36,030 bases of DNA from Rhodothermales bacterium. GTDB lineage: Bacteria > Bacteroidota > Rhodothermia > Rhodothermales > VXPQ01. The notes under the pieces were generated by a model. That model was not told where the DNA came from. It did not search any database and saw only the letters and a list, made by a program, of their open reading frames with translations. The stretch is taken from positions 96,298-132,327 of the forward strand of contig JBBDTI010000016.1 of the NCBI GenBank assembly GCA_040904565.1. Reading direction: 5' to 3'. Both the position numbers and the translations under genes were made by a program. The stretch's first letter is position 1, and each line of letters begins with the position of its first letter. Shown here in pieces: positions 23,621-35,964 of the stretch.

Positions 23621-24778
23621 ATGAGTGCATTCCTGAAACTGTCACGGTGGCTCGAGGCACACCGTGACGTGGCATTCGACCTGCTCCGCATGTACCTCGG
23701 AGTTGGGCTATTCGCGAGAGGCATCCTCTTCGTCGTACGACCTGAGGCGTATACGACGCTGATCTCGGCCGCCGATGCGTCGGTACTTACGTCTCCGCCG
23801 GTCATGTATCTCGTGGCCACCGTACACGTGATCGGCGGCTTGATGCTGGCCGTTGGATTCTACACGCGGCTGGCGGCACTCATCAATATTCCCATCCTAC
23901 TGGGGGCCCTGGTGCTCATCCACCTTCAGGGCGGCCTCTTTACGGCGAGTCAGTCGTTCGAATTCTCGGCGCTGGTTCTTTTCTTGCTATTCCTGGCTTT
24001 TCTACATGGATCGGGTCGCTGGTCGGTCGACGCACGCCGTACGCCACAATTCGTCCCCTTTCAGAAATATGTGGATCGACTCGATCGTTCGGGCGACGTA
24101 GCTTTCGAGCTCCTTCGCATCTACCTGGGCGTCGGTCTATTCGTGCGCGGCATCCTGTTTATCTCGAACTCGAGCGCCTTCATGGAGCTGCTCGGCAGCT
24201 CGTCGGCAGCCTGGCTTACGTCGGTCGCACTGATCCACTACGTGGCCCTGTCACACCTCGTGGGCGGCATCATGATCGCAATTGGACTCTTCACCCGGGC
24301 CGCCGCACTCGTACAGCTTCCCGCCCTCGTCGGCGCCGTATTCGTCGTGCACTTTCAGGGTGGGTTGCTGGCGCCGAGCCAGTCTCTGGAATTTTCCGCG
24401 CTCGTCCTCTTCCTGCTCGTGCTCGTCTTTCTGTGGGGATCCGGTAACCTGTCGGTCGACAATTACGTGATCGAGCAGCCGGTCGACGAGGAGTTGTACC
24501 GGCACGCCGGCTCGCTCGGTGCTCGTTCCACGGAGCCCGAGCCGCTGTTGAGTTCGGAGCCGACTACAACGATGCGGCACGCCAGATGCTCCTGCGGACA
24601 TGGTGTCGATCATCCGCGGGTGACCGCCCACGCCAGATACAGTATGTGGGGAGCCATGTACTTCCTGTCAGGGATCACCGGGCCACCCAAAGAAATCGTC
24701 TTTTCGTGCGGAGACTGCGGCGAGGTGATCGCGAAGAGCCACGAGCCGGAGGTGCTGGAACGGTATCGGTACCCGTGA
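23621..24778 (+). CDS. Tandem-duplicated DoxX family membrane protein with a C-terminal Cys/His metal-binding module
   Basis: Two homologous repeats (LLRxYLGVGLF...GxxTRxAAL...H.QGG...GSGxxSVD); tail CSCGH...CGDC; ggagg SD. Confidence 0.85.
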   Translation: MSAFLKLSRWLEAHRDVAFDLLRMYLGVGLFARGILFVVRPEAYTTLISAADASVLTSPPVMYLVATVHVIGGLMLAVGFYTRLAALINIPILLGALVLIHLQGGLFTASQSFEFSALVLFLLFLAFLHGSGRWSVDARRTPQFVPFQKYVDRLDRSGDVAFELLRIYLGVGLFVRGILFISNSSAFMELLGSSSAAWLTSVALIHYVALSHLVGGIMIAIGLFTRAAALVQLPALVGAVFVVHFQGGLLAPSQSLEFSALVLFLLVLVFLWGSGNLSVDNYVIEQPVDEELYRHAGSLGARSTEPEPLLSSEPTTTMRHARCSCGHGVDHPRVTAHARYSMWGAMYFLSGITGPPKEIVFSCGDCGEVIAKSHEPEVLERYRYP

Positions 24779-24797: not shown

Positions 24798-25568
24798 TTA
24801 CGCTCCCGGCCCCGCCGACTGTTCGTCGAGCCACGCCTGGAAGTCGGCCTCCGAATGGACGGTAAAGTATCCGCGCATCCGATAATGCCCCACGCCGCAC
24901 AGCTGCGCGCAGGAGATCTCCCAGTCGCCCGTGCTCGTCGGCGTGAAATAGAGCGGAATCGATAGCCCCGGAATGGCGTCCTGCTTGACGCGCATCTCCG
25001 CGAGGCTGAAGCTGTGAATCACGTCCTTGGAGGTCAGGTGAACGATCACGGGGCGGTCGACGGGTACGTGCAGCTCGTTCACCGTCACGATATCATCCGC
25101 ACCCGCCGGATCGTCGGGCCTCAGTCCGATCGGATTCGTCTGCAGATCGATCAGCTCGATATCGCGCTCTCCGAACTCACCATCCGGCCCCGGGTAGTGC
25201 ACGTTCCACGCGAACTGTTCGCCGATGACGTGGACCACCGTCGATTCCTCCTCGGTCGGATAGTTAGCCTCCGCCCGCAAGGCCGCCCACGTGGGCACGG
25301 CGAATCCGAACAGCAGAACGAGCTCCGCCACGACGACACCCACTTCTTGATACGTCGAAAGATGGCTGTGTACGCCGAAGTAATCGGCCTTGGGATTCTT
25401 CGACGCCCTGAACCGGTAGAGGGTGTACAGGAAGAACGGTGCCCAGATCACGAAGAGAATGATCATGAGCCAGTGCACCAGACCCATGAGGGCGTCTACT
25501 TGCGCGCTGTGGGCCGACGCGGCCTCGGGCATCCCAAGGAGGGGAGATAAGTCAAGCCAATCGAACAT
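24798..25568 (-). CDS. coxB: Cytochrome c oxidase subunit II (CuA), no fused cytochrome c
   Basis: Two TMs, GEQFAWNVHY, DVIHSF, KQDAIPG and CAQLCGVGHYRM. Confidence 0.95.
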   Translation of the reverse strand: MFDWLDLSPLLGMPEAASAHSAQVDALMGLVHWLMIILFVIWAPFFLYTLYRFRASKNPKADYFGVHSHLSTYQEVGVVVAELVLLFGFAVPTWAALRAEANYPTEEESTVVHVIGEQFAWNVHYPGPDGEFGERDIELIDLQTNPIGLRPDDPAGADDIVTVNELHVPVDRPVIVHLTSKDVIHSFSLAEMRVKQDAIPGLSIPLYFTPTSTGDWEISCAQLCGVGHYRMRGYFTVHSEADFQAWLDEQSAGPGA

Positions 25569-25601
25569 GACGATTTCCGGCAGATCTGGTCTAGTTTCTG
25601 T

Positions 25602-25895
25602 TTAGGATGGGTCCCCGTCGACGTGGCGCACGTCCCCGTATTGGGTAACGACGACATCGCTGCGTTCGAGACGACTCGAACGGCGCTGCACGTTATAGAA
25701 AAAAGCGCCGATCCCGCCGCCCACGACGCCTACCATGCCGATCAGCGAGAGCATAGCCATGCTGATGCCGCGCGTGATGGGCGTGTCGACCCCCGCGCCC
25801 CAGCACATTTCACACGCCGAGGCAACGTCCGGGCCCAGTGCCCATCCGACGGCGACAATCCCGAGCACGACGAGGTTCTTCTGGAGCTTTGTCAT
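25602..25895 (-). CDS. Small exported/membrane protein with CxxC after a predicted signal peptide
   Basis: Hydrophobic N-region, ASA-CEMC, then a Gly-rich TM; inside the cox operon. Confidence 0.75.
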   Translation of the reverse strand: MTKLQKNLVVLGIVAVGWALGPDVASACEMCWGAGVDTPITRGISMAMLSLIGMVGVVGGGIGAFFYNVQRRSSRLERSDVVVTQYGDVRHVDGDPS

Positions 25896-25910
25896 GATGA
25901 CCACCGCGTG

Positions 25911-26117
25911 TTACAGATATCCGATATGCTTCAACTTCCTTAGAAAGCGAACGCCGTAGACGACCAGACCGACCCCCACACCGAACGAGACGAGTCCAGC
26001 CACCAGCATCCACACGTTGCCCGACTCCGCATACCGCGCGAGCTCCCACACCCCGAACCCCACGGCAAGCAGGGTCGACACGGCGATGAACACGATATGA
26101 AAGGCCTTCAGAGACAT
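25911..26117 (-). CDS. Small two-TM membrane protein of the oxidase operon
   Basis: 68 aa, MSLKAFHIVFI..., two hydrophobic helices, tight spacing to both neighbours. Confidence 0.75.
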   Translation of the reverse strand: MSLKAFHIVFIAVSTLLAVGFGVWELARYAESGNVWMLVAGLVSFGVGVGLVVYGVRFLRKLKHIGYL

Positions 26118-26129
26118 GTTCGGCGGTAG

Positions 26130-26450
26130 TTAGAGTCCGGTAACGGCGCCGACCTGATCGTAGTAGTACACGCTCAGTATCGTGAACATGAAGACGAGCA
26201 GCCCGAGGCTCATCCAGACGAGCAACCTTATGACGCGCTCTTCCGACACCAGGTGCATGAAGTAGGCGGCGACGAGGCCCGCTTTGATCGACGCGATGAC
26301 GAGCGCGGCGATGAGCGCGGGAAGGATCGGCAGGTGTAGATATCCCACGCCCACCGTGACGACCGTGAGTATGGCCAGCGCGGCAAAGACGGAGATATAT
26401 ACCCGTACGTGCTTCTTAACCTCTTCAATGTTGTGTGCTGCGTCGCTCAT
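26130..26450 (-). CDS. Prokaryotic cytochrome c oxidase subunit IV family protein
   Basis: YISVFAALAILTVVTV and KAGLVAAYFMHL signature; three TMs. Confidence 0.9.
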   Translation of the reverse strand: MSDAAHNIEEVKKHVRVYISVFAALAILTVVTVGVGYLHLPILPALIAALVIASIKAGLVAAYFMHLVSEERVIRLLVWMSLGLLVFMFTILSVYYYDQVGAVTGL

Positions 26451-26498
26451 GGCTGGCTGATCGTTGTGATGACTCGGCGACCGGTATGGACCGCGGGG

Positions 26499-27116
26499 CT
26501 ACAGGAGATAGATGGTTGGAAACAGGAAAATCCAGACGAGATCGACGAAGTGCCAGTACAGTCCGGCGATCTCAATCCGGTTCGTAAATTGCTTCGGGTT
26601 CGTCTTCCACATCTTAGCGCCGGGTCCCCAGAAATACGCGTTCACGATGATGCCGCCGATCACGTGTAGCCCGTGCAGCCCCGTCAGTACGAAGTAGATG
26701 GCCAGGAAATTATGTTCGGCCGGCAGGAGTCCGTGCTCGAACTTGGTCCCGTACTCGAACGCCTTGACGACGAGAAACGCAAATCCGAGCAGGATCGTCG
26801 CACCCATGTAGAGCTTGTAGCGATCGAACCGGTCCATGGCCAGCGACGCCCACGACATCACCATCGTTACGCTCGATCCGATCAGGATCATCGTGTTGAG
26901 CGTGGCGAGCGGCACATTCAGAATTTCGGAGGCCCTCGCGTACATCACGCCGTGGATCTCACCCGGCCAGGCCGGCGCACCGACGCGTAGAAAAATGTAG
27001 GCCGAAAACAGACCGCCGAAGAGCATCACCTCGGATGCCAGAAACAGCCATACGCCGATCTTGGCGTTGTAGACGCCGGTGTCGGGGCGGGGAGCTACGG
27101 TGTAAGGAATCTGCAT
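26499..27116 (-). CDS. coxC: Heme-copper oxidase subunit III (short five-helix type)
   Basis: WLFLASEVMLFGGLF, NTMILIGSS, TGLHGLHV and YWHFVDLVW. Confidence 0.95.
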   Translation of the reverse strand: MQIPYTVAPRPDTGVYNAKIGVWLFLASEVMLFGGLFSAYIFLRVGAPAWPGEIHGVMYARASEILNVPLATLNTMILIGSSVTMVMSWASLAMDRFDRYKLYMGATILLGFAFLVVKAFEYGTKFEHGLLPAEHNFLAIYFVLTGLHGLHVIGGIIVNAYFWGPGAKMWKTNPKQFTNRIEIAGLYWHFVDLVWIFLFPTIYLL

Positions 27117-27165
27117 GATGCTCTATATCTCTCGATGTGTCTCGCTCGAGCTGTACGGTTCGGCG

Positions 27166-28959
27166 TCAAACGCTCGCCGGCTGCCGTGCCGGTTCGGGCG
27201 GCGTATGCTGCGGCCAGAAGTCGTCGTGAAAGTCGGGATGGCTATACTCGTAGGGCGCCCTGTAGACGCGGGGGAGCGTCTTGAAATTGCCGTGACCGAC
27301 CGGCGGCGATGGCGCGGCAGCCCACTCCAGCGTCGTCGCCTCCCAGTGATTGTCTTCCGCCGGCTTCCCTTTCCACATGCTCATGATCAGGTTCACGATG
27401 AAGGGGATCTGGAAGAGGAACAGCACCCAGGCGGCGATCGACATGACCTCGTTGTAGTGAATCACGCCCTGCGCATGCGCATAGACCTCACCTCCGTCGT
27501 AGAGCCTCCGCGAGACCCCGGCCAGGCCCTGGATGAACATCGGGAAGAAGATTAAATTCATGCTGATGAGGGTACCCCAGAAGTGGATCTTCCCCAGGGC
27601 ATCGTTCATCGTGCGCCCGGTCATCTTCGGGAACCAGTAATAGATGCCGCCCATGAGGGCGAGAATCGTACCGGGAGCGACCACGTAGTGGAAGTGGCCG
27701 ATCACGTAATACGTATCGTGCAGCGGAATATCCGTCGGCGCCAGCCCCAGCGGCAGCCCCGTGAGCCCGCCGATGCCGAACATGGGAAGGAATCCGAGCG
27801 CGAACAACATCGGCGTGGTAAAGCGTATCGATCCGCCCCAGAGCGAGATGAACAACGCCGTAAGGATGATCACGGACGGAATCGAAATGATCATCGTCGT
27901 GGTCTGGAAAAACGTGCTCATCACCTGGCCCATGCCCGTGATGAACATATGATGCGCCCACACGATGAAGGACATGAAGCCAAGAAACAAAAGGGCGTAG
28001 ACCATCACCTTGTAACCCCAGAGCGGCTTGCGCGTGTTGTTGGCGATGATCTCCGCCACGATGCCCATGGCCGGCAGGATCAGGACGTACACTTCCGGAT
28101 GGGCCAGGAACCAGAATAGATGCTGCCAGAGCAGCGGGCTGCCTCCTCCGGCAACGTCCAGGGCTTCACCGCTGACGACCAGGCCGGACGGCAGGAAGAA
28201 GCTCGTGTCGAGCAGGCGGTCGGACAGCTGCAGGACGGAGGCTGCTTCGAGCGGCGGGAAGGCCAGCAGCAGCAAGAACGACGTGACGAACTGCGCCCAT
28301 ACGAAGAACGGCATGCGCATGAACGTCATGCCGTCGGCGCGGAGCTGGATGATGGTCGTCAGGAAATTAACGGCACCGAGCAACGATGACGTGATGAGGA
28401 AAACCATCCCCAGCAGCCACATCGTCTGGCCCATCGTCTCGATGACGGAAAGCGGCGCGTAGGACGTCCAACCCGCCTTGGCCGCGCCCGCCGGGACGAA
28501 GAAACTCCCCAGCATCACGAGACCGCCCATGACGAAAACCCAGTAGCTCGCCATGTTCAGCTTGGGAAACGCCATGTCGGGCGCACCAATCTGAAGCGGC
28601 ACGATGTAGTTGCCGAAAGCGCCTACCGCCAGCGGAACGATGCCCAGGAATACCATGATCGTGCCGTGCATGGCCCCGAGCTGATTGTAGAACTCGGGAA
28701 GCATGACGCCTCCGGGCATCGTCTCGTCGCTGAAAAGGCTTCCAATGATCGGCAGGGCCTCACCAGGATAGGCGAGCTGCCACCTCATCAGCATCACGAG
28801 GGAGAACCCGAAGAGCAGGAAGAACAGTGACGTGATACCGTACTGAATCCCGATGACCTTATGGTCGGTCGAAAAAATGTACTTCCTCCAGAAAGGAAGG
28901 TCGTGGTGATGTCCTTCCTCACCGTCGTGGCTTTCTGGTGCGGTGGCGTGTTCAGCCAT
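27166..28959 (-). CDS. coxA: Heme-copper oxidase subunit I, A-family (HPEVY type) with an atypical K-channel
   Basis: STDHKVIG, MHGTIM, DMAFP, GWTSYAPL, WFLAHPEVY, WAHHMF, HDTYYVIGHFHY and GVSRR. Confidence 0.97.
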   Translation of the reverse strand: MAEHATAPESHDGEEGHHHDLPFWRKYIFSTDHKVIGIQYGITSLFFLLFGFSLVMLMRWQLAYPGEALPIIGSLFSDETMPGGVMLPEFYNQLGAMHGTIMVFLGIVPLAVGAFGNYIVPLQIGAPDMAFPKLNMASYWVFVMGGLVMLGSFFVPAGAAKAGWTSYAPLSVIETMGQTMWLLGMVFLITSSLLGAVNFLTTIIQLRADGMTFMRMPFFVWAQFVTSFLLLLAFPPLEAASVLQLSDRLLDTSFFLPSGLVVSGEALDVAGGGSPLLWQHLFWFLAHPEVYVLILPAMGIVAEIIANNTRKPLWGYKVMVYALLFLGFMSFIVWAHHMFITGMGQVMSTFFQTTTMIISIPSVIILTALFISLWGGSIRFTTPMLFALGFLPMFGIGGLTGLPLGLAPTDIPLHDTYYVIGHFHYVVAPGTILALMGGIYYWFPKMTGRTMNDALGKIHFWGTLISMNLIFFPMFIQGLAGVSRRLYDGGEVYAHAQGVIHYNEVMSIAAWVLFLFQIPFIVNLIMSMWKGKPAEDNHWEATTLEWAAAPSPPVGHGNFKTLPRVYRAPYEYSHPDFHDDFWPQHTPPEPARQPASV

Positions 28960-29070: not shown

Positions 29071-29847
29071 TTAGCTTGCCGCCGCGCCGCCTTCGAAAGT
29101 AAAGTCGAGACTGACGGATTCACCGTCACCCACGCTCACGTTCTGCGTCTGGGTGCCGTACTCCTCGTGCCAGGCTTCGATCACGTAATCCCCAGCGGGG
29201 AGATTGTCGATCGAATAGCCCCCCGATTCGTCGGATGTGCTGAAGAAGGGATGCTCCGTTACCCCGGCCCAGGCCTCCATCCAGGGATGAACGTCGCACT
29301 TGATGCGTACCATGATCTCAGGAACGCGAAACGCTTCGTCACGCTGCTGACCGGCCGTAGGCATACCGAAATTAAACGGCCTGTTCTCGTTCGGAAGCGC
29401 ATGTATGTTGTGCAGCATCGGATCGCTGTTGTGAATCCTCAACGTCTGACCCGCCTGCACGCCGAAGACGTGGGGAGAGTACATGCACCCCTGCTGGTCC
29501 AGGATGACGGGCTCCTGACTCGGAGCGAACTGCTGGTCACCCAGACCTTCCTTGACGTAGACGAAGACCCAGCGCAGCGTACCGTTGTCGTTGACGACGA
29601 CGCGCTGGCTCAACGCCGGCTCGTCGCGCAGTCCCATGCATTCGCGATCGAGATTGAGCTCCTGGCGCTCCTGTGCCGTACCCGTGAATTGAATGGATCC
29701 CGCGACCGTGGCGCTTCCGGTCGGCGCCTGCTCGGCCGTGGCCGCGTCCGACTCGGACGCCCCACCAGATTCTCCGCCGCCTCCACAGCCGGCAAGGACG
29801 AAGGCTGAGGTGGTAACTGCAAGAACTAAAATCTTGATGCTGCTCAT
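29071..29847 (-). CDS. Lipoprotein with a cupredoxin-like copper motif and a carboxypeptidase-regulatory-like beta domain
   Basis: Lipobox LAGC, DQQGCMYSPHV, NSDPMLHNIH, CDVHPWM, then GGYSIDNLPAGDYVIEAWH; first gene of the operon. Confidence 0.85.
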   Translation of the reverse strand: MSSIKILVLAVTTSAFVLAGCGGGGESGGASESDAATAEQAPTGSATVAGSIQFTGTAQERQELNLDRECMGLRDEPALSQRVVVNDNGTLRWVFVYVKEGLGDQQFAPSQEPVILDQQGCMYSPHVFGVQAGQTLRIHNSDPMLHNIHALPNENRPFNFGMPTAGQQRDEAFRVPEIMVRIKCDVHPWMEAWAGVTEHPFFSTSDESGGYSIDNLPAGDYVIEAWHEEYGTQTQNVSVGDGESVSLDFTFEGGAAAS

Positions 29848-29859
29848 AGGGTACGTCAC

Positions 29860-31144: not shown

Positions 31145-31187
31145 GAACCGTTGGTATGTTTACGACCGTCCCCGATCCTTCCGGGTT

Positions 31188-31247
31188 ACGTTCTTCATCG
31201 CGTCCTTCGTCACGTTCTTCATCGCGTCCTTCGTCACGTTCTTCATC
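31188..31247. repeat. 24-bp tandem repeat (ACGTTCTTCATCGCGTCCTTCGTC), 2.5 copies, built from degenerate 12-mers
   Basis: Exact copies at 31188-31211 and 31212-31235, plus half copy at 31236-31247. Confidence 0.9.
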
Positions 31248-31257
31248 CCACGACAGC

Positions 31258-31743
31258 ATGATGTCCGGATCCGTCGAAAAAACGCCCGATCACCGGCAAC
31301 GCGTCGCCACGCTGCTTGCACTCCTTGCCGGCGAGAAAAGCCAGGAGGTCCTCGCCCGCCACGCGAGCCGCGAACGCGTCGCCTACGAGCTCACGCGCGT
31401 CTGGTTCGACGAGATCTACGTTCCTGGCGGGCGGTATCTCGGCGGACTCAAAGGCGACTTTTCCAGGGCGTCCGCCGAGACGTTCAACGATGCGTTCGAT
31501 CCCGTCGAAATCGCCGCCATGGAACGCTTCCACCGCTTTTTCGAGCTCCGGGTGGAGATGCTCCCGGGCGACTTCATCGAGGCGGAACGTATCCCGATCG
31601 ACGAACGCTGGCGCAGCCTGATGCGCGATGCCGGATACCTGCTGGAAGATCTCGGCATCGACGTCGGCGACCGCGGGCGGCGGCTTGCCTCCAGCCTGCA
31701 GGGTGTGGACGGACTCGCCTCGCTCATCCGTAGCGGAGGGTAA
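31258..31743 (+). CDS. Hypothetical alpha-helical protein
   Basis: ATG at 31258 after the repeat; protein-like sequence ELTRVWFDEIYVPG...WRSLMRDAGYLL. Confidence 0.7.
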   Translation: MMSGSVEKTPDHRQRVATLLALLAGEKSQEVLARHASRERVAYELTRVWFDEIYVPGGRYLGGLKGDFSRASAETFNDAFDPVEIAAMERFHRFFELRVEMLPGDFIEAERIPIDERWRSLMRDAGYLLEDLGIDVGDRGRRLASSLQGVDGLASLIRSGG

Positions 31744-32161
31744 GTGCTACGTAGACGACCACTCCCGCCAGCACGACGTGGGCCGCCGCGGCCCATCCGG
31801 CCCGTCGGCCCTTCCCGCTCGGTACCAGCACGAGACTGTACCACAGCTGGATGCCCACCATCCCCAGAAAAAGCACCAGTTTCACGCCCACGAGCTGGAG
31901 ATAGCGGCTGCCGTAGCTGAATCCCGTCATCACCCCCGCATTGATGACGTTGAAGATGCCGCTCAACAGGATGACGAAGATGAGTTCGCGGCTCAATCGC
32001 TGGAAACGCAGCACGAGCCGTTCCACGAGCTCGTCGGCACGCTCGGGAAGGAGGCGACGCACGTAGGGTGCCACGACGAACGGGATGGCGATCATCCCTC
32101 CCACCCAGGCGATGACGCCCGCGAGGTGTATCCACAATACGACGATGCGAAACGTGAGCAC
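31724..32161 (-). CDS. CopD/DUF4149-like four-TM membrane protein
   Basis: WIHLAGVIAWVGG, RFQRLS, LLSG and GVKLVLF patterns; GTG start 3 nt after the upstream stop. Confidence 0.7.
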   Translation of the reverse strand: MLTFRIVVLWIHLAGVIAWVGGMIAIPFVVAPYVRRLLPERADELVERLVLRFQRLSRELIFVILLSGIFNVINAGVMTGFSYGSRYLQLVGVKLVLFLGMVGIQLWYSLVLVPSGKGRRAGWAAAAHVVLAGVVVYVALTLRYG

Positions 32162-32164
32162 GGC

Positions 32165-32713
32165 CTACATCCCGAGCTGCCCGCGCGCCCGATCGAGCAC
32201 GTCGACCGTCACTTCGTCCACCCCTTCCTCTCGCGCAAATTCCTCGACACCCTTCATCACCATCGAGCGGGCATAGGATGGAATTTTTTCCATCCGCGTC
32301 CGCGCCGCGTCGGACCAGGACACGGCGTCCGCCTCGAAGGCCTCGTTCACCATCCCGGTAAACGGACACTTGGACGTGCCGTCCGACGGCGATCCGTCGC
32401 CACCGTGTCCGGGCTCGGGTCCCGCCGAGTGACTTGCCTCAGCGTGCTCCGGCGCACCGTGCCCCTCGCCTGCGGCCGGTCGTGCGCCGGCGAGCCCCGA
32501 ACGAATCCCCTCCATGGGCTCCGCCTCGACGGTGCGCCCGCCGATCTTGACGCCGAGAGATCGAACGACCTGCGTCTCGCTGGCATTCGTGAGCATCGCC
32601 GTCCGGCGCTCGCAGCTCGGGCATACAAACACGACCGTCATGGAGCCCCGATCCGGACCCCGCGTGTCGACGAGGGCCATCGCTTCATCACATTCGACAC
32701 AGAGAAATTTCAT
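32165..32713 (-). CDS. CxxC...CxxC zinc-finger-like domain plus PCP_red (BchB/ChlB C-terminal-like) domain protein
   Basis: MKFLCVECD...FVCPSC, linker with KCPF, then WSDAARTRMEKIPSYARSMVMKGVEEFAREEGVDEVT; ATGA overlap with mrp. Confidence 0.8.
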   Translation of the reverse strand: MKFLCVECDEAMALVDTRGPDRGSMTVVFVCPSCERRTAMLTNASETQVVRSLGVKIGGRTVEAEPMEGIRSGLAGARPAAGEGHGAPEHAEASHSAGPEPGHGGDGSPSDGTSKCPFTGMVNEAFEADAVSWSDAARTRMEKIPSYARSMVMKGVEEFAREEGVDEVTVDVLDRARGQLGM

Positions 32714-33600
32714 AGCTGATCCATCATGGATTGTACATCGTTCGCCAGGTTGAAGAAGGCCTTCGCCGCGGGACGCTCCGGATGATCCTGCGGAAAGGAT
32801 CGCCCCTCGTCCGCCGCCATCCCGATCGCCGGATCGAAGGGAATGCGCGCCACCACCCGCACGCCCAGTCCTCGGGCCAGCGCGTCCACGCTGCCGGACG
32901 GGAAGAGATCGTCGGCCTCGCCGCAATGCGGACACACGTAGGCTCCCATGTTCTCGATGAGTCCGACCGAAGGCACGTGGAGGTGCTCCTGCATCAGGCG
33001 CACCGAGCGGCCGACGACGGACATCGAGACCGCCGACGGGATGGTCACGACCAGCGCACCGTCGATGCGGGGCACGACGCCGGCCAGCGTCGGCAGCCGA
33101 TCGGAGCCCGGCGGCAGGTCGACGAGGAGCACGTCCAGCTCCCCCCATTCCGTGTCCGCAATCAGCTCCCGCAGCGCGCCGGCTTCCCGCAAGCCACGCC
33201 ACGCGGCCCCGTCCGTCTGCGACGGGGCGTCCCAGACGACCGGCGCCGTCTCATCGGCCAGAAACAAATCCATCGACATCACCCGCACACCGGCGCTCGT
33301 CTCGGCGGGGAGGACGCCGGCTCCTTTCCGTCGAATGGGTGCCTCAAGCACGCCCGCCATACGTCCGAGCGAGGGCCCGTTGATGTCGCCGTCGACGATC
33401 CCCACCCGAGCTCCCGTATGGGCCAGCGCGGCGGCCAGGTTGACGGCAACCGTGCTCTTGCCCACGCCGCCCTTACCGCTCATCACGGCTACGATGCGAC
33501 GCACGTCGGACAGCCGGCCGGCAAGGCGGTCGGACTGCGCCTCTACCTGACCGACGACGTCGGATCCACCGTCCGTCGCAATATCGTGGTACGTCTTCAT
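32710..33600 (-). CDS. mrp: Mrp/ApbC/NBP35 family P-loop ATPase (Fe-S cluster carrier)
   Basis: SGKGGVGKS deviant Walker A, DGDINGPS, WGELDVLLVDLPPG and ENMGAYVCPHC. Confidence 0.9.
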   Translation of the reverse strand: MKTYHDIATDGGSDVVGQVEAQSDRLAGRLSDVRRIVAVMSGKGGVGKSTVAVNLAAALAHTGARVGIVDGDINGPSLGRMAGVLEAPIRRKGAGVLPAETSAGVRVMSMDLFLADETAPVVWDAPSQTDGAAWRGLREAGALRELIADTEWGELDVLLVDLPPGSDRLPTLAGVVPRIDGALVVTIPSAVSMSVVGRSVRLMQEHLHVPSVGLIENMGAYVCPHCGEADDLFPSGSVDALARGLGVRVVARIPFDPAIGMAADEGRSFPQDHPERPAAKAFFNLANDVQSMMDQL

Positions 33601-33616: not shown

Positions 33617-35530
33617 CTATTCGTTTTGCGCTCGAATGGCTTCTTCCATGGCTTTCCGCGCCGCTTCGATGCCTTCTTCGGCGACCTCCAGCGTCACGAT
33701 GCTCGTGTCACGCCGATCGGCTGCCTCCTCCATCCGTTCCCGGGTCTTTTCGCGCATGAATCCCTCGGGGACGCGCTCGAGCCGCGCCCAGGCGTCGGGC
33801 GTCCACTTGTAGTTCCCCTTCTCGAGCAGATCGACGGACGACGGGTCACGGCGTTCGGGAGCGTCCGAAGACGGCTTCAGCCGTCCCCGCTCAGAAAGCT
33901 CCGAGGTATCCTCCAGCAGATCGGCGACGACGCCGGCAACCATCTCGTGCGTGATGGTATCGAGCCCTTTCACGCGCGCGCTCTTTTCGATCTGTGCGCG
34001 GGCGCGCCGCATCTGATATCCGTCCGGTACCTTGCGCAGCAGGTCTCTCGCGTCGCGCGTCCACGACAGCTTCTTCTTATCGAACGTCTCCACCTCTTCG
34101 AGGGCCCCTTCGAGCGGTGCGAGTTCCTTGATGGCTTCCTTGTCCAGCTTGTGGAACGATTCGGGCGGCGCGCTGCATACGGCGCAGACGGCCGGCTCGA
34201 AGCCGCGGGCGGCGTACCCGCAGTTGCTGCAGATGTACGTGACTTCGTCGCTCGATTCCACCTTGTCCCGTGCCACCGTCTCCGCGATGATGCCCATCGA
34301 TTTCATGGCGGACTCAGGCAGGATCGTGGCCATCGACTGTTCGACGACCTTACGGGTGATGACCGAGTGCCCTCGTTCCATGGCCCAGCGATGAATGGTC
34401 GTCCGCGCGATGTTGCGGGCGAAGTCCGGTGCCGTATCGACCAGCGCCGTCGCCTCGTCCGTCCACAGCATGGATTCCTCGGCCTGCACGTCGAGCGGCG
34501 GCGTGTAGCGCCGGCTCGACAGCAGCACGTTGCACGAGGCCATCCGCAGGAGGTTTTCCGTGTTGCTGCCGATGTCCATATCTTCGTCGCTGTGCACGCC
34601 GATACGGCCGACGACGAGCAGCCACGGCTTCTCGCGGCGCACGTACTGCAGGATCTTGTCGAACGCCTTGCCGTCGAGCAGCGTGATCTTCAGATCGACG
34701 CCCTCGTCGGCAGCGATGCGGCGGGCCACTTCCAGATGCGACTGGTAGATCTTCGCCAGGCCCGTATCGATCACCTCTTCGTGGAGCTGTTCCTGCTCCT
34801 TGAACCTGAAAACCTTCGAGGCCTTCTCCGTGAGCACGTTTACGATGCTGTTGAACATCGCGTAATGGAGGTACGGATCGTAGACGGACACCGCCTCGAC
34901 GCGCTTGTCCAGCTTCCGGCCCAGTTCCAGCGCCGTTTTGAGTCCGGCGAACGACTCCGGACTGCCGTCGACGCCGACGACGATGTGTCCACCGTGCGGC
35001 TCGCCGACCTCTTTGCCGTTCATCTGCACGTCGAAATCGTCCGTATTCTTGACGACGAGCGTGTCCGTATGCACGCGCCGAACGACGCGCGAGACGACAC
35101 TCCCGAGAACGCTGTCGCGGACGGCTCCGAGCCCGAGCGAGCCCATGACGACCAGGTCGTAGTCGCTCTCCTCGACGTCCTGGACGATCACCTTCCAGTT
35201 CTTCCCGTCGTACATCTTGGGCTTGAAGGGAAGGTTTTCTTCCGCGCACCGCTTCTGCATCACGGTCAGGTAGGAATCGGAGATCAGTTCGAGACCCATC
35301 GTGATGAGCGTGTCGTGGACCTTGCGCTGCTTCTCCATCTCCTCCTCGACGAGGTACTCTTCAGGCAGCGTGAACTCCATCTGCTTGAAGCGGTAGTCGT
35401 GCATCCGCGCCGCGTAGGCGTGGCTGCCGACGAGGCTCGCATTCAGGCGCTTGGCGAGGTTGACGGCCACGTCGATGCTCGCCATCGAGTGATCGGAATT
35501 GTCGACCGGAACGAAGATCTTTTTATACAT
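33617..35530 (-). CDS. Multidomain universal stress protein: Usp-Usp-PCP_red-rubredoxin-like-PCP_red-PCP_red
   Basis: MYKKIFVPVDNSDHS and IVVGVDGSPES Usp starts; two G-x2-G-x9-GS motifs; three W-T-x-[ED]-A...P helical repeats; CSNC...CAVC. Confidence 0.85.
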   Translation of the reverse strand: MYKKIFVPVDNSDHSMASIDVAVNLAKRLNASLVGSHAYAARMHDYRFKQMEFTLPEEYLVEEEMEKQRKVHDTLITMGLELISDSYLTVMQKRCAEENLPFKPKMYDGKNWKVIVQDVEESDYDLVVMGSLGLGAVRDSVLGSVVSRVVRRVHTDTLVVKNTDDFDVQMNGKEVGEPHGGHIVVGVDGSPESFAGLKTALELGRKLDKRVEAVSVYDPYLHYAMFNSIVNVLTEKASKVFRFKEQEQLHEEVIDTGLAKIYQSHLEVARRIAADEGVDLKITLLDGKAFDKILQYVRREKPWLLVVGRIGVHSDEDMDIGSNTENLLRMASCNVLLSSRRYTPPLDVQAEESMLWTDEATALVDTAPDFARNIARTTIHRWAMERGHSVITRKVVEQSMATILPESAMKSMGIIAETVARDKVESSDEVTYICSNCGYAARGFEPAVCAVCSAPPESFHKLDKEAIKELAPLEGALEEVETFDKKKLSWTRDARDLLRKVPDGYQMRRARAQIEKSARVKGLDTITHEMVAGVVADLLEDTSELSERGRLKPSSDAPERRDPSSVDLLEKGNYKWTPDAWARLERVPEGFMREKTRERMEEAADRRDTSIVTLEVAEEGIEAARKAMEEAIRAQNE

Positions 35531-35551: not shown

Positions 35552-35941
35552 CTAGTAGATCAGCTTGAGGCGTTCGTGAACGTAGTGCAGTCGGCGGGCA
35601 ACATATTCGAGCGTATCGTGATCTTCCGCGAGGAGGGAGACGGCCAACAGGGCCCGCCGCAGGGGCTCGGCCCCGTGCTCGGCCTCGCCCTTCTCCGCAT
35701 CGGCCAGTCCGTCCGCGAACCGCCGCATCTCGTACCGGGCACGCACGAGCATATTATAGGCGTCGCTTCCCGGAGCGAGTCCGGCCAGCACGCGCTCGAG
35801 GCGCGACAGCTCGAGCCCGATCACGGCGGGTGCCATCCGCCGGAATTCCTTCCATCCGACGAAATCCAGCTCATTCCAGTCGAGCTCCCGCCCGCCCAGC
35901 CTGGCCGCCTTCGTTTCCAGTATGTCCCGTGTCTCATCCAT
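35552..35941 (-). CDS. Hypothetical alpha-helical protein
   Basis: About 129 aa, co-oriented, ends 21 nt before the usp start; ATG 35941 (ORF track uses TTG 35956). Confidence 0.7.
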   Translation of the reverse strand: MDETRDILETKAARLGGRELDWNELDFVGWKEFRRMAPAVIGLELSRLERVLAGLAPGSDAYNMLVRARYEMRRFADGLADAEKGEAEHGAEPLRRALLAVSLLAEDHDTLEYVARRLHYVHERLKLIY

Positions 35942-35964
35942 GCCATCCAACGTCAAAGCAGGTG

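Follow-up and report, generated by a model that had tools for sequence, protein, structure and literature searches.

A histidine-lidded tandem universal stress protein as a candidate haem carrier for cytochrome bd-like oxidases

We analysed a 36,030-nt window (contig C16, positions 96298-132327) of the 4.0-Mb, 95% complete genome of a Rhodothermales bacterium (G000), in which a 637-aa open reading frame (ORF) lies at window positions 33617..35530 on the minus strand, the strand of all features below unless stated otherwise. Pfam matches and an AlphaFold model of the full-length protein (pLDDT 87.9, pTM 0.65) resolved the ORF into two universal stress protein (USP) domains, a PCP_red repeat, a four-cysteine knuckle and two further PCP_red repeats. 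Usp domain 1 (aa 1-161; 35048..35530) and Usp domain 2 (aa 182-340; 34511..34987, also delimited in the AlphaFold model) matched PF00582 in two stretches with 134.3 bits against a cut-off of 24. The three PCP_red repeats (PF08369; aa 356-398, 489-532 and 575-620; 34337..34465, 33935..34066 and 33671..33808) scored 35.9, 39.1 and 40.3 bits, each exceeding the cut-off of 32.5 on its own. These scores, together with a reading of the ATP motifs described below, bore out the first-pass annotation, made from the sequence alone, which had listed two Usp domains with ATP motifs and three PCP_red repeats.

The same annotation had placed a rubrerythrin-type knuckle among the PCP_red repeats. The four Cys residues are present (C434/C437/C449/C452; 34154..34237) and were retained in 79-81 of 81 close sequences; the RUBY_RBDX profile (PF21349) scored 22.1 bits at aa 432-459, below its cut-off of 26.5, which was exceeded by three relatives (27.4, 32.8 and 29.7 bits), and the knuckle proved to be an accessory rather than a core feature of the family. 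Full-length rubrerythrin and nigerythrin models were matched in their C-terminal part only (18.7 and 20.4 bits against cut-offs of 200 and 340), and only the C-terminal 50 positions of the BchB/ChlB catalytic subunit (TIGR01278) were matched, with 55 bits against 490. The absence of a BchB core ruled out a chlorophyll role. By its sequence, the 637-aa protein is thus a USP family member with true PCP_red domains, and is neither BchB nor rubrerythrin.

Both Usp domains carry the G-x2-G-x9-G-S/T ATP motif as defined in the accessible parts of PMC10003552 and PMC11841059, namely G130-x2-G133-x9-G143-S144 (35099..35143) and G308-x2-G311-x9-G321-S322 (34565..34609), the latter including a conserved H313. 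The motif glycines were 0.95-1.0 conserved in the family alignment and the serines about 0.75, placing the protein in the ATP-binding USP subclass with predicted ATP binding or hydrolysis. Each domain also contains a helical insertion, or lid. The first (35297..35410) carries H44 and H72 together with near-invariant R47, F48, E52, L55, P56 and R69, and the second (34763..34876) carries H222 and H250 along with P219, F226, L233, F241, Q246 and I254. The two domains aligned without gaps at an offset of 178, pairing D10 with D188, H44 with H222, H72 with H250, G79 with G257, G109 with G287, and the two ATP motifs with each other; the earlier claim that the His pairs occupy equivalent positions therefore holds in exact repeat register. 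In the AlphaFold model of the core, built from a 120-row alignment (mean pLDDT 94.9), insertion 1 formed a helix (41-50) and a long helix (62-97), and insertion 2 a helix (221-230) and a long helix (243-275). The core adopted the Usp alpha/beta tandem fold (VIA Z 29.3 and rmsd 3.1 over 281 aligned residues of 3cis_A), its nearest solved folds being the tandem USPs Rv2623 and TTHA0350, with 16-24% identity, and no catalytic family matched it by sequence or by fold.

Mean-field covariation over 404 sequences (effective number 189) was weak overall, with 55 pairs above z 5 compared to 29 in a shuffled control, and single pairs were weak against a null maximum of z 7.3. Symmetry mates nevertheless agreed above chance (24 compared to 8 expected). 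D45-D73, whose mate is Y223-E251, ranked fourth among the symmetric covarying pairs, and M43-V71 and E52-H72 also scored; these pairs suggest that, within each lid, the two His are neighbours. Cross-domain pairs (R47-Y262, D108-L221 and Y59-S322) hint that each lid may touch the other domain near its nucleotide site. Adjacent lid His and cross-domain covariation support a candidate His site coupled to ATP, and do not separate haem from bare metal.

All four lid His were present in 373 of the 376 homologues covering these positions in the pooled set of 404 sequences, and H44, H72, H222 and H250 were invariant in 36 distant members with a mean column identity of 32%. Among 150 representatives of 50%-identity clusters, which are ~35-67% identical across the full core, H44 was kept in 114 of 119, H72 in 118 of 123, H222 in 136 of 140 and H250 in 135 of 141. 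H313 in the second ATP loop was kept in 122 of 134 representatives, and retention fell to 98/141 for H265 and 45/118 for H14. Within the 81 close sequences, H37, H44, H72, H222, H250, H265 and H313 were all invariant; H37 and H313 were conserved as strongly as the lid His, H37 lying at a position where a His is common in Usp domains. The 30 of 344 columns that were at least 97% conserved corresponded to ATP-site and lid residues. None of the genome's 10 other Usp-like ORFs aligned across either His insertion. Poor conservation of the lid His, named in the first-pass annotation as grounds for abandoning its reading, was thus not what we found.

The tail varied much more than the core. The C-x2-C-G...C-x2-C knuckle occurred in 16 of 103 full-core representatives and in 1 of 74 distant metagenome proteins, and the number of PCP_red copies varied between 0 and 6; 35 representatives had none, although some of these may be cut or frameshifted. 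The rarity of the knuckle and the variable repeat number indicated that the functional unit is the His-lidded tandem Usp and not the rubredoxin, and the same counts make a redox sensor based on that knuckle less likely. In a cluster atlas, Usp plus PCP_red proteins of ~683 aa were commonest in Nitrospirota and Nitrospinota, and among cultured bacteria a homologue is recorded for Rhodocaloribacter litoris. A distant subgroup (P0222, P0230, P0241 and P0267) carried a ~60-aa terminal domain with a weak CDC48_2 match in place of further PCP_red repeats. In L140:3032-4948 and L156:9190-11022, AhbD-like radical S-adenosylmethionine (SAM) proteins with three PCP_red repeats followed ~400-aa His-Usp genes, and PCP_red repeats appear to move between His-Usp and radical SAM proteins. 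Broken His-Usp copies were also seen, as two split matches in G196:C11 and as a copy with three stops in G371:C21.

Gene order was read in 80 of 229 genome loci and in 80 of 175 metagenome loci, the latter found with a distant sub-alignment. In the Rhodothermales genome, the Usp gene is preceded at 21 bp by a 134-aa ORF (35552..35956) without a Pfam family, a homologue of which was found in 57 of the 80 genome loci. It is followed at 16 bp by a gene for an Mrp/NBP35-type Fe-S carrier ATPase (32710..33600; PF10609, 238.7 bits; below the ApbC and MrpORP cut-offs), whose stop overlaps by 4 bp the gene of a 182-aa protein (32165..32713) that contains a pair of CxxC motifs and, at its C-terminus, a PCP_red, and, 3 bp after the latter, by a gene for a CopD-like membrane protein (31724..32161; weak match, below cut-off). 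Further downstream lies a lipoprotein gene (29071..29859) with a C-x2-H-x2-M motif, which we take to be cupredoxin-like; its product is 34% identical to that of the gene heading the CydA-like block of locus L164. Upstream of the Usp gene, beyond the window, are a radical SAM/SPASM gene (C16:132704-133993) whose product ends in a PCP_red and a CydA-like gene (C16:137138-138895; PF01654, 87.6 bits; no NCBIfam match), as well as three cytochrome c genes and a small ferredoxin-like ORF read by eye, all on the same strand. All 5 PCP_red matches of the genome fell on three proteins of this gene cluster.

A haem-copper oxidase operon (cox1, cox3, cox4, two small ORFs and cox2; 24798..28959) is a frequent but not obligatory neighbour of the family. 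Its Cox1 (27166-28959) reads ISIPSVIILTALF where, as we assume, A-family oxidases usually have the K-channel lysine. A second haem-copper oxidase operon (L081; G000:C16:142977-149970), with a cox1 37% identical to that of the window and with SCO-like and ActF-like ORFs, both named by eye, lies just upstream of the bd-like block. A double DoxX membrane protein with a Cys-rich C-terminal tail (23621-24778, plus strand) had homologues in 21 of the 80 genome loci, and in many of these it lay immediately upstream of the CydA-like gene, on the opposite strand. The start of a 195-aa ORF (31156-31260, plus strand; homologue in 34 of the 80 loci) consisted of a short Ser/Arg-rich tandem repeat, and its true start is probably later. 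The window contained no promoter-like site, two terminator-like sites compared to 4.0 expected, and no Rfam match.

Neighbourhoods were counted in the 72 loci whose two flanks each spanned 4 kb or more. A CydA-like gene was present in 58, a radical SAM gene in 52 and a haem-copper oxidase in 24, and 70 loci had at least one of these or ahbAB. Greedy clustering at 70% reduced the set to 22 loci, single linkage (17 groups) having merged lineages. The dereplicated loci contained a CydA-like gene in 16, an ABC permease in nine, a radical SAM gene in six, a conserved split-barrel-like ORF in six, Mrp in three and a haem-copper oxidase in two; a CydA-like, AhbD-like or haem-copper oxidase gene was found in 20 of the 22 and none of them in the other two. 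The CydA-like gene is the tightest partner of the His-Usp, ahead of Mrp, the knuckle and the haem-copper oxidase. The haem-copper oxidase was ruled out as the main client by its presence near only 2/22 loci. Docking of PCP_red on Mrp, modelled on BchB and BchL, was left unsupported, Mrp being near only 3/22; the accessible part of PMC12022308 describes BchL as contacting only BchB.

The split-barrel-like ORF (~230 aa; for example L001:7886-8710 and L116:7138-7803) had a homologue in 44 of the 160 loci and was fused to the His-Usp in 4 of the 11 sequences read (P0145, P0153, P0156 and P0215). It matched neither Pfam nor PDB entries, apart from one fusion with a weak PNPOx_N match below cut-off, and was not found in G000.

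At the genome level, all 33 His-Usp carriers among 121 genomes of the order had a CydA-like gene, and the sole extra CydA-like match was broken by stops. A CydA-like remnant with stops, and without a His-Usp match, was seen in G206:C1. In 201 genomes of the phylum of G260 (titled Acidobacteria), the 15 full His-Usp carriers were the same 15 with a close CydA-like match, or 13 of 13 when the unpublished G317 and G414 were left out; one partial Usp match was set aside, and seven genomes had only distant CydA matches. In 151 genomes of the phylum of G262 (titled Planctomycetota), a CydA-like match was found in 14 of 14 carriers; it was close in 13 of them, while the remaining carrier had a distant one on the contig of its His-Usp. 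Eight non-carriers had distant matches only. All ten genomes without a CydA-like gene at the fetched locus had one elsewhere, with 51-64% identity. CydA-like proteins fused to cytochrome c domains were encoded in L099 and L110. In L092, assigned to archaea because it adjoins a thermosome gene, a CydA-like gene, a His-Usp and an ABC transporter were found among archaeal housekeeping genes.

The neighbourhood also pointed to haem synthesis. The best two NCBIfam matches of the radical SAM protein were AhbD (TIGR04545) with 306 bits and NirJ2 (TIGR04055) with 356 bits, and it contains both a CX3CX2C and a CX2CX5CX2CX17C motif. The latter, given as the AhbD auxiliary-cluster motif in the accessible part of PMC10114771, was present in 75 of 78 near-full neighbouring radical SAM proteins. 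A radical SAM match of at least 46% identity was found in 14 of the 15 G260-phylum carriers, and 12 non-carriers had matches of 35-40%. L118:96-12624 encodes AhbA and AhbB over cut-off and AhbC- and AhbD-like proteins beside CydA-like and Usp genes and an ABC transporter; loci of the L118 and L092 type make up a haem-plus-oxidase module in archaea. An HmuY gene is present in L156. The His-Usp gene is thus linked both to haem synthesis and to a haemoprotein client, as would be expected of the haem chaperone class. The idea that the radical SAM gene merely replaces ChdC was not supported, a ChdC-family match being present in 11 of the 33 carriers of the order; G000 itself had no ChdC-family match. 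One ferrochelatase gene of G000 (L083; G000:C20:29441-31940) converges on an ORF that is HemY-like by eye, the other is linked to hemF on contig C73, and G000 possibly has two haem routes.

The family extends to an anammox-type nxr cluster. L164 (genome G569) encodes a 434-aa homologue that is 41% identical, with all four His, one PCP_red and no knuckle; its gene is flanked on one side by a CydA-like/cytochrome block and on the other by nxrC-, nxrB- and chaperone-like genes. By gene counting against the 15-gene anammox nxr cluster kustd1699-1713 described in the accessible part of PMC8387239, its position in the gene order is probably that of kustd1706; neither kustd1706 nor a universal stress protein is mentioned in the accessible text and supplements of that paper. 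In Nitrospira marina, according to the accessible supplement of PMC8115632, a 699-aa UspA adjoins a 460-aa SPASM radical SAM gene, MetK and SahH, and is a probable orthologue of the 637-aa protein by its length and neighbour. It gave 112-132 counts there in air, compared to 97-132 when O2 was low (log2 change −0.01), and the UspAs significantly induced at low O2 were four of 288-315 aa.

Taken together, we consider it possible, with a probability of about 45%, that the CydA-like, OR-N-like bd-type oxidase is served by the His-lidded tandem Usp, either as an ATP-gated carrier of haem or as an assembly factor. Each His pair, or the His of both lids jointly, would ligate haem b or coprohaem in a pocket lined by the conserved Arg47 and Arg69 and by aromatic residues, and the lids would be opened and closed by ATP bound in the Usp cores. 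The operon's AhbD-like radical SAM enzyme, where present, would supply the haem, which would then pass to the CydA-like apo-oxidase. The PCP_red repeats common to the Usp, the radical SAM enzyme and the 182-aa CxxC protein may be optional docking modules, and Mrp and the ferredoxin would serve the Fe-S enzyme, not the Usp protein. Haem was preferred over metal because AhbABCD-like genes, HmuY and haem b/c clients occur in the neighbourhood and because the His are flanked by conserved Arg and aromatic residues. A broader proposal, that a whole USP subfamily is an ATP-gated haem-insertion or tailoring factor dedicated to bd-like oxidases without a quinol site, is more tentative. Its members would supply a missing assembly gene in three settings: in Nitrospira, for what is presumed to be the main terminal oxidase; in the anammox nxr cluster, where the gene is probably kustd1706, for the bd-like block; and in some archaea, for CydA-like proteins acquired with a haem pathway.

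The first-pass annotation had spoken of a haem or metal chaperone and not a generic stress protein. The second part is well supported by the family-specific His, the co-occurrence with the CydA-like gene and the probable orthologue that is uninduced at low O2; the first is the best reading and draws on genomic context, with His ligation as a prediction. The literature searched, which mostly left out subscription journals, contained no description of the 637-aa protein family, although a supplement on OR-N oxidases may mention the gene. The His-lidded Usp is real, widespread and uncharacterised in that literature.

Several observations weigh against haem delivery. With 306 bits for AhbD and 356 bits for NirJ2, against 500, the radical SAM protein fell short of both cut-offs, that of the AhbD equivalog included, and its gene was near only 6/22 dereplicated loci. 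G000 also has HemE, HemF and two ferrochelatases, and, as noted, 11/33 carriers of the order had a ChdC-family match, indicating that the module is not simply the sole haem source. The co-occurrence largely reflects co-inheritance of one linked island, and the genomes are not independent events. The N. marina orthology is drawn solely from length and neighbour, and a USP review in which the word "heme" is absent offers no precedent. Finally, the weak covariation would put residues flanking H44 and H72 in contact, an arrangement that may suit a compact site for a non-haem metal no less than a haem sandwich.

This last point leads to the rival that survives best, although we regard it as unlikely: the His pairs would be non-haem Cu, Fe or Zn sites, and the protein an ATP-dependent metallochaperone for the bd-like complex or for the radical SAM partner. 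The covariation suggests lid His on touching helices, with E52 (0.97 conserved) near H72, but it is weak (55 pairs above z 5 compared to 29 shuffled), the second lid offers no acidic counterpart of E52, and a conserved Cys is missing from both lids. A cupredoxin-like lipoprotein accompanies the cluster here and in L164, cupredoxins occur in distant loci and a CopD-like gene is in the operon; on the other hand, the recurring neighbours make or bind haem. In the accessible parts of the respective papers, one Nitrospira bd-like oxidase has putative haem b and copper sites (PMC8115632), and the tandem USP YdaA binds zinc (PMC10003552).

Next in standing, and doubtful, is a ligand-sensing regulator, in which haem, metal or ATP status would switch control of the oxidase, the haem synthase or an adjacent ABC transporter via protein contacts; the redox sensor of the first-pass annotation belongs here. 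The nearest fold, Rv2623, is described in the accessible literature as an ATP-dependent signalling intermediate interacting with Rv1747, and an ABC permease gene was near 9/22 dereplicated loci. However, the knuckle is absent from most relatives, and Pfam detected no DNA-binding or kinase domain in the 30 family variants scanned. The probable N. marina orthologue is abundant (97-132 counts) but unresponsive to low O2 with its log2 fold change of −0.01.

An enzyme, either an ATP-using chelatase or a haem-tailoring catalyst making a special haem with the radical SAM enzyme, is improbable. Chelatases that rely on His provide an analogy, the 30 columns conserved to 97% or more gather around the ATP sites and the lids, much as in an active site, and the split-barrel-like domain (weak PNPOx_N) is fused in 4/11 sequences, with a homologue in 44/160 loci. 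Against this, G000 already has two ferrochelatases, no catalytic family matched the protein in sequence or fold, and the gene for the split-barrel-like partner was not found in G000. An ordinary USP placed by chance in a respiratory island is very improbable: the database name is just "universal stress protein", the top fold matches are all plain tandem USPs and low-oxygen operons are often flanked by USPs, but the His lids are missing from the 10 other Usp-like ORFs of the genome, the gene tracks the CydA-like gene nearly one to one in three samples, and the N. marina USPs induced at low O2 are, in the accessible supplement, the four of 288-315 aa and not the 699-aa one.

If haem delivery by the His-lidded Usp is correct, USPs would gain a cofactor-handling function, a function would be assigned to a gene inside the anammox nxr cluster, and a gene to co-express for active bd-like oxidase would be suggested. 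The soluble 344-residue core with four named candidate ligands makes the protein tractable. New here are the conservation of the His-lidded core alone, the CydA-like gene as its partner, and the reach of the family to an archaeal locus and to an anammox-type nxr cluster. OR-N bd-like oxidases are proposed terminal oxidases of nitrifiers and manganese oxidisers, and PMC12342949 still calls their oxygen affinity unknown.

Among known systems, the core shares its two-domain Usp fold with Rv2623 (3cis; VIA Z 29.3, Foldseek E 1e-18) and TTHA0350 (3ab7/3ab8; VIA Z 26.8, Foldseek E 2e-16), and has in common with them a G-x2-G-x9-G-S motif in each domain. It differs from them in its low identity (16-24%), the His-pair lids, the PCP_red tail and the linkage to a respiratory cluster; relative to Rv2623, 57 of 338 model residues in the aligned range stay unaligned. 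The repeats belong with PF08369 of the BchB/ChlB C-terminus (2kru, 2ynm_D) and of the stand-alone Asr4154 (2l09), all three structures being matched by the family profile, but unlike BchB/ChlB of dark-operative protochlorophyllide reductase (DPOR) the protein lacks the catalytic core, all PCP_red matches of the genome lie in the Usp cluster and the copy number in the family varies from 0 to 6. The proposed role resembles that of the haem chaperone HemW, for which cytoplasmic hand-over of haem to a membrane respiratory cytochrome is proposed in the accessible part of PMC10114771; there is no homology, since HemW is a radical SAM protein and the protein here is a Usp with a predicted haem role. 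The block upstream of the Usp gene, made up of a CydA-like gene, two cytochrome c genes and a gene for a haem c plus DMSO-reductase-type haem b protein, agrees with the content of the TO_1 complex given in bioRxiv 2021.11.15.468770. The cluster likewise matches the OR-N cytochrome bd-like oxidases of bioRxiv 2021.01.16.426971 and is OR-N-like by that description. The accessible accounts of OR-N, TO_1 and anammox nxr do not mention a USP or assembly factor. In contrast to AhbD and NirJ2, the neighbouring radical SAM protein carries a C-terminal PCP_red, of which there are three in L140 and L156.

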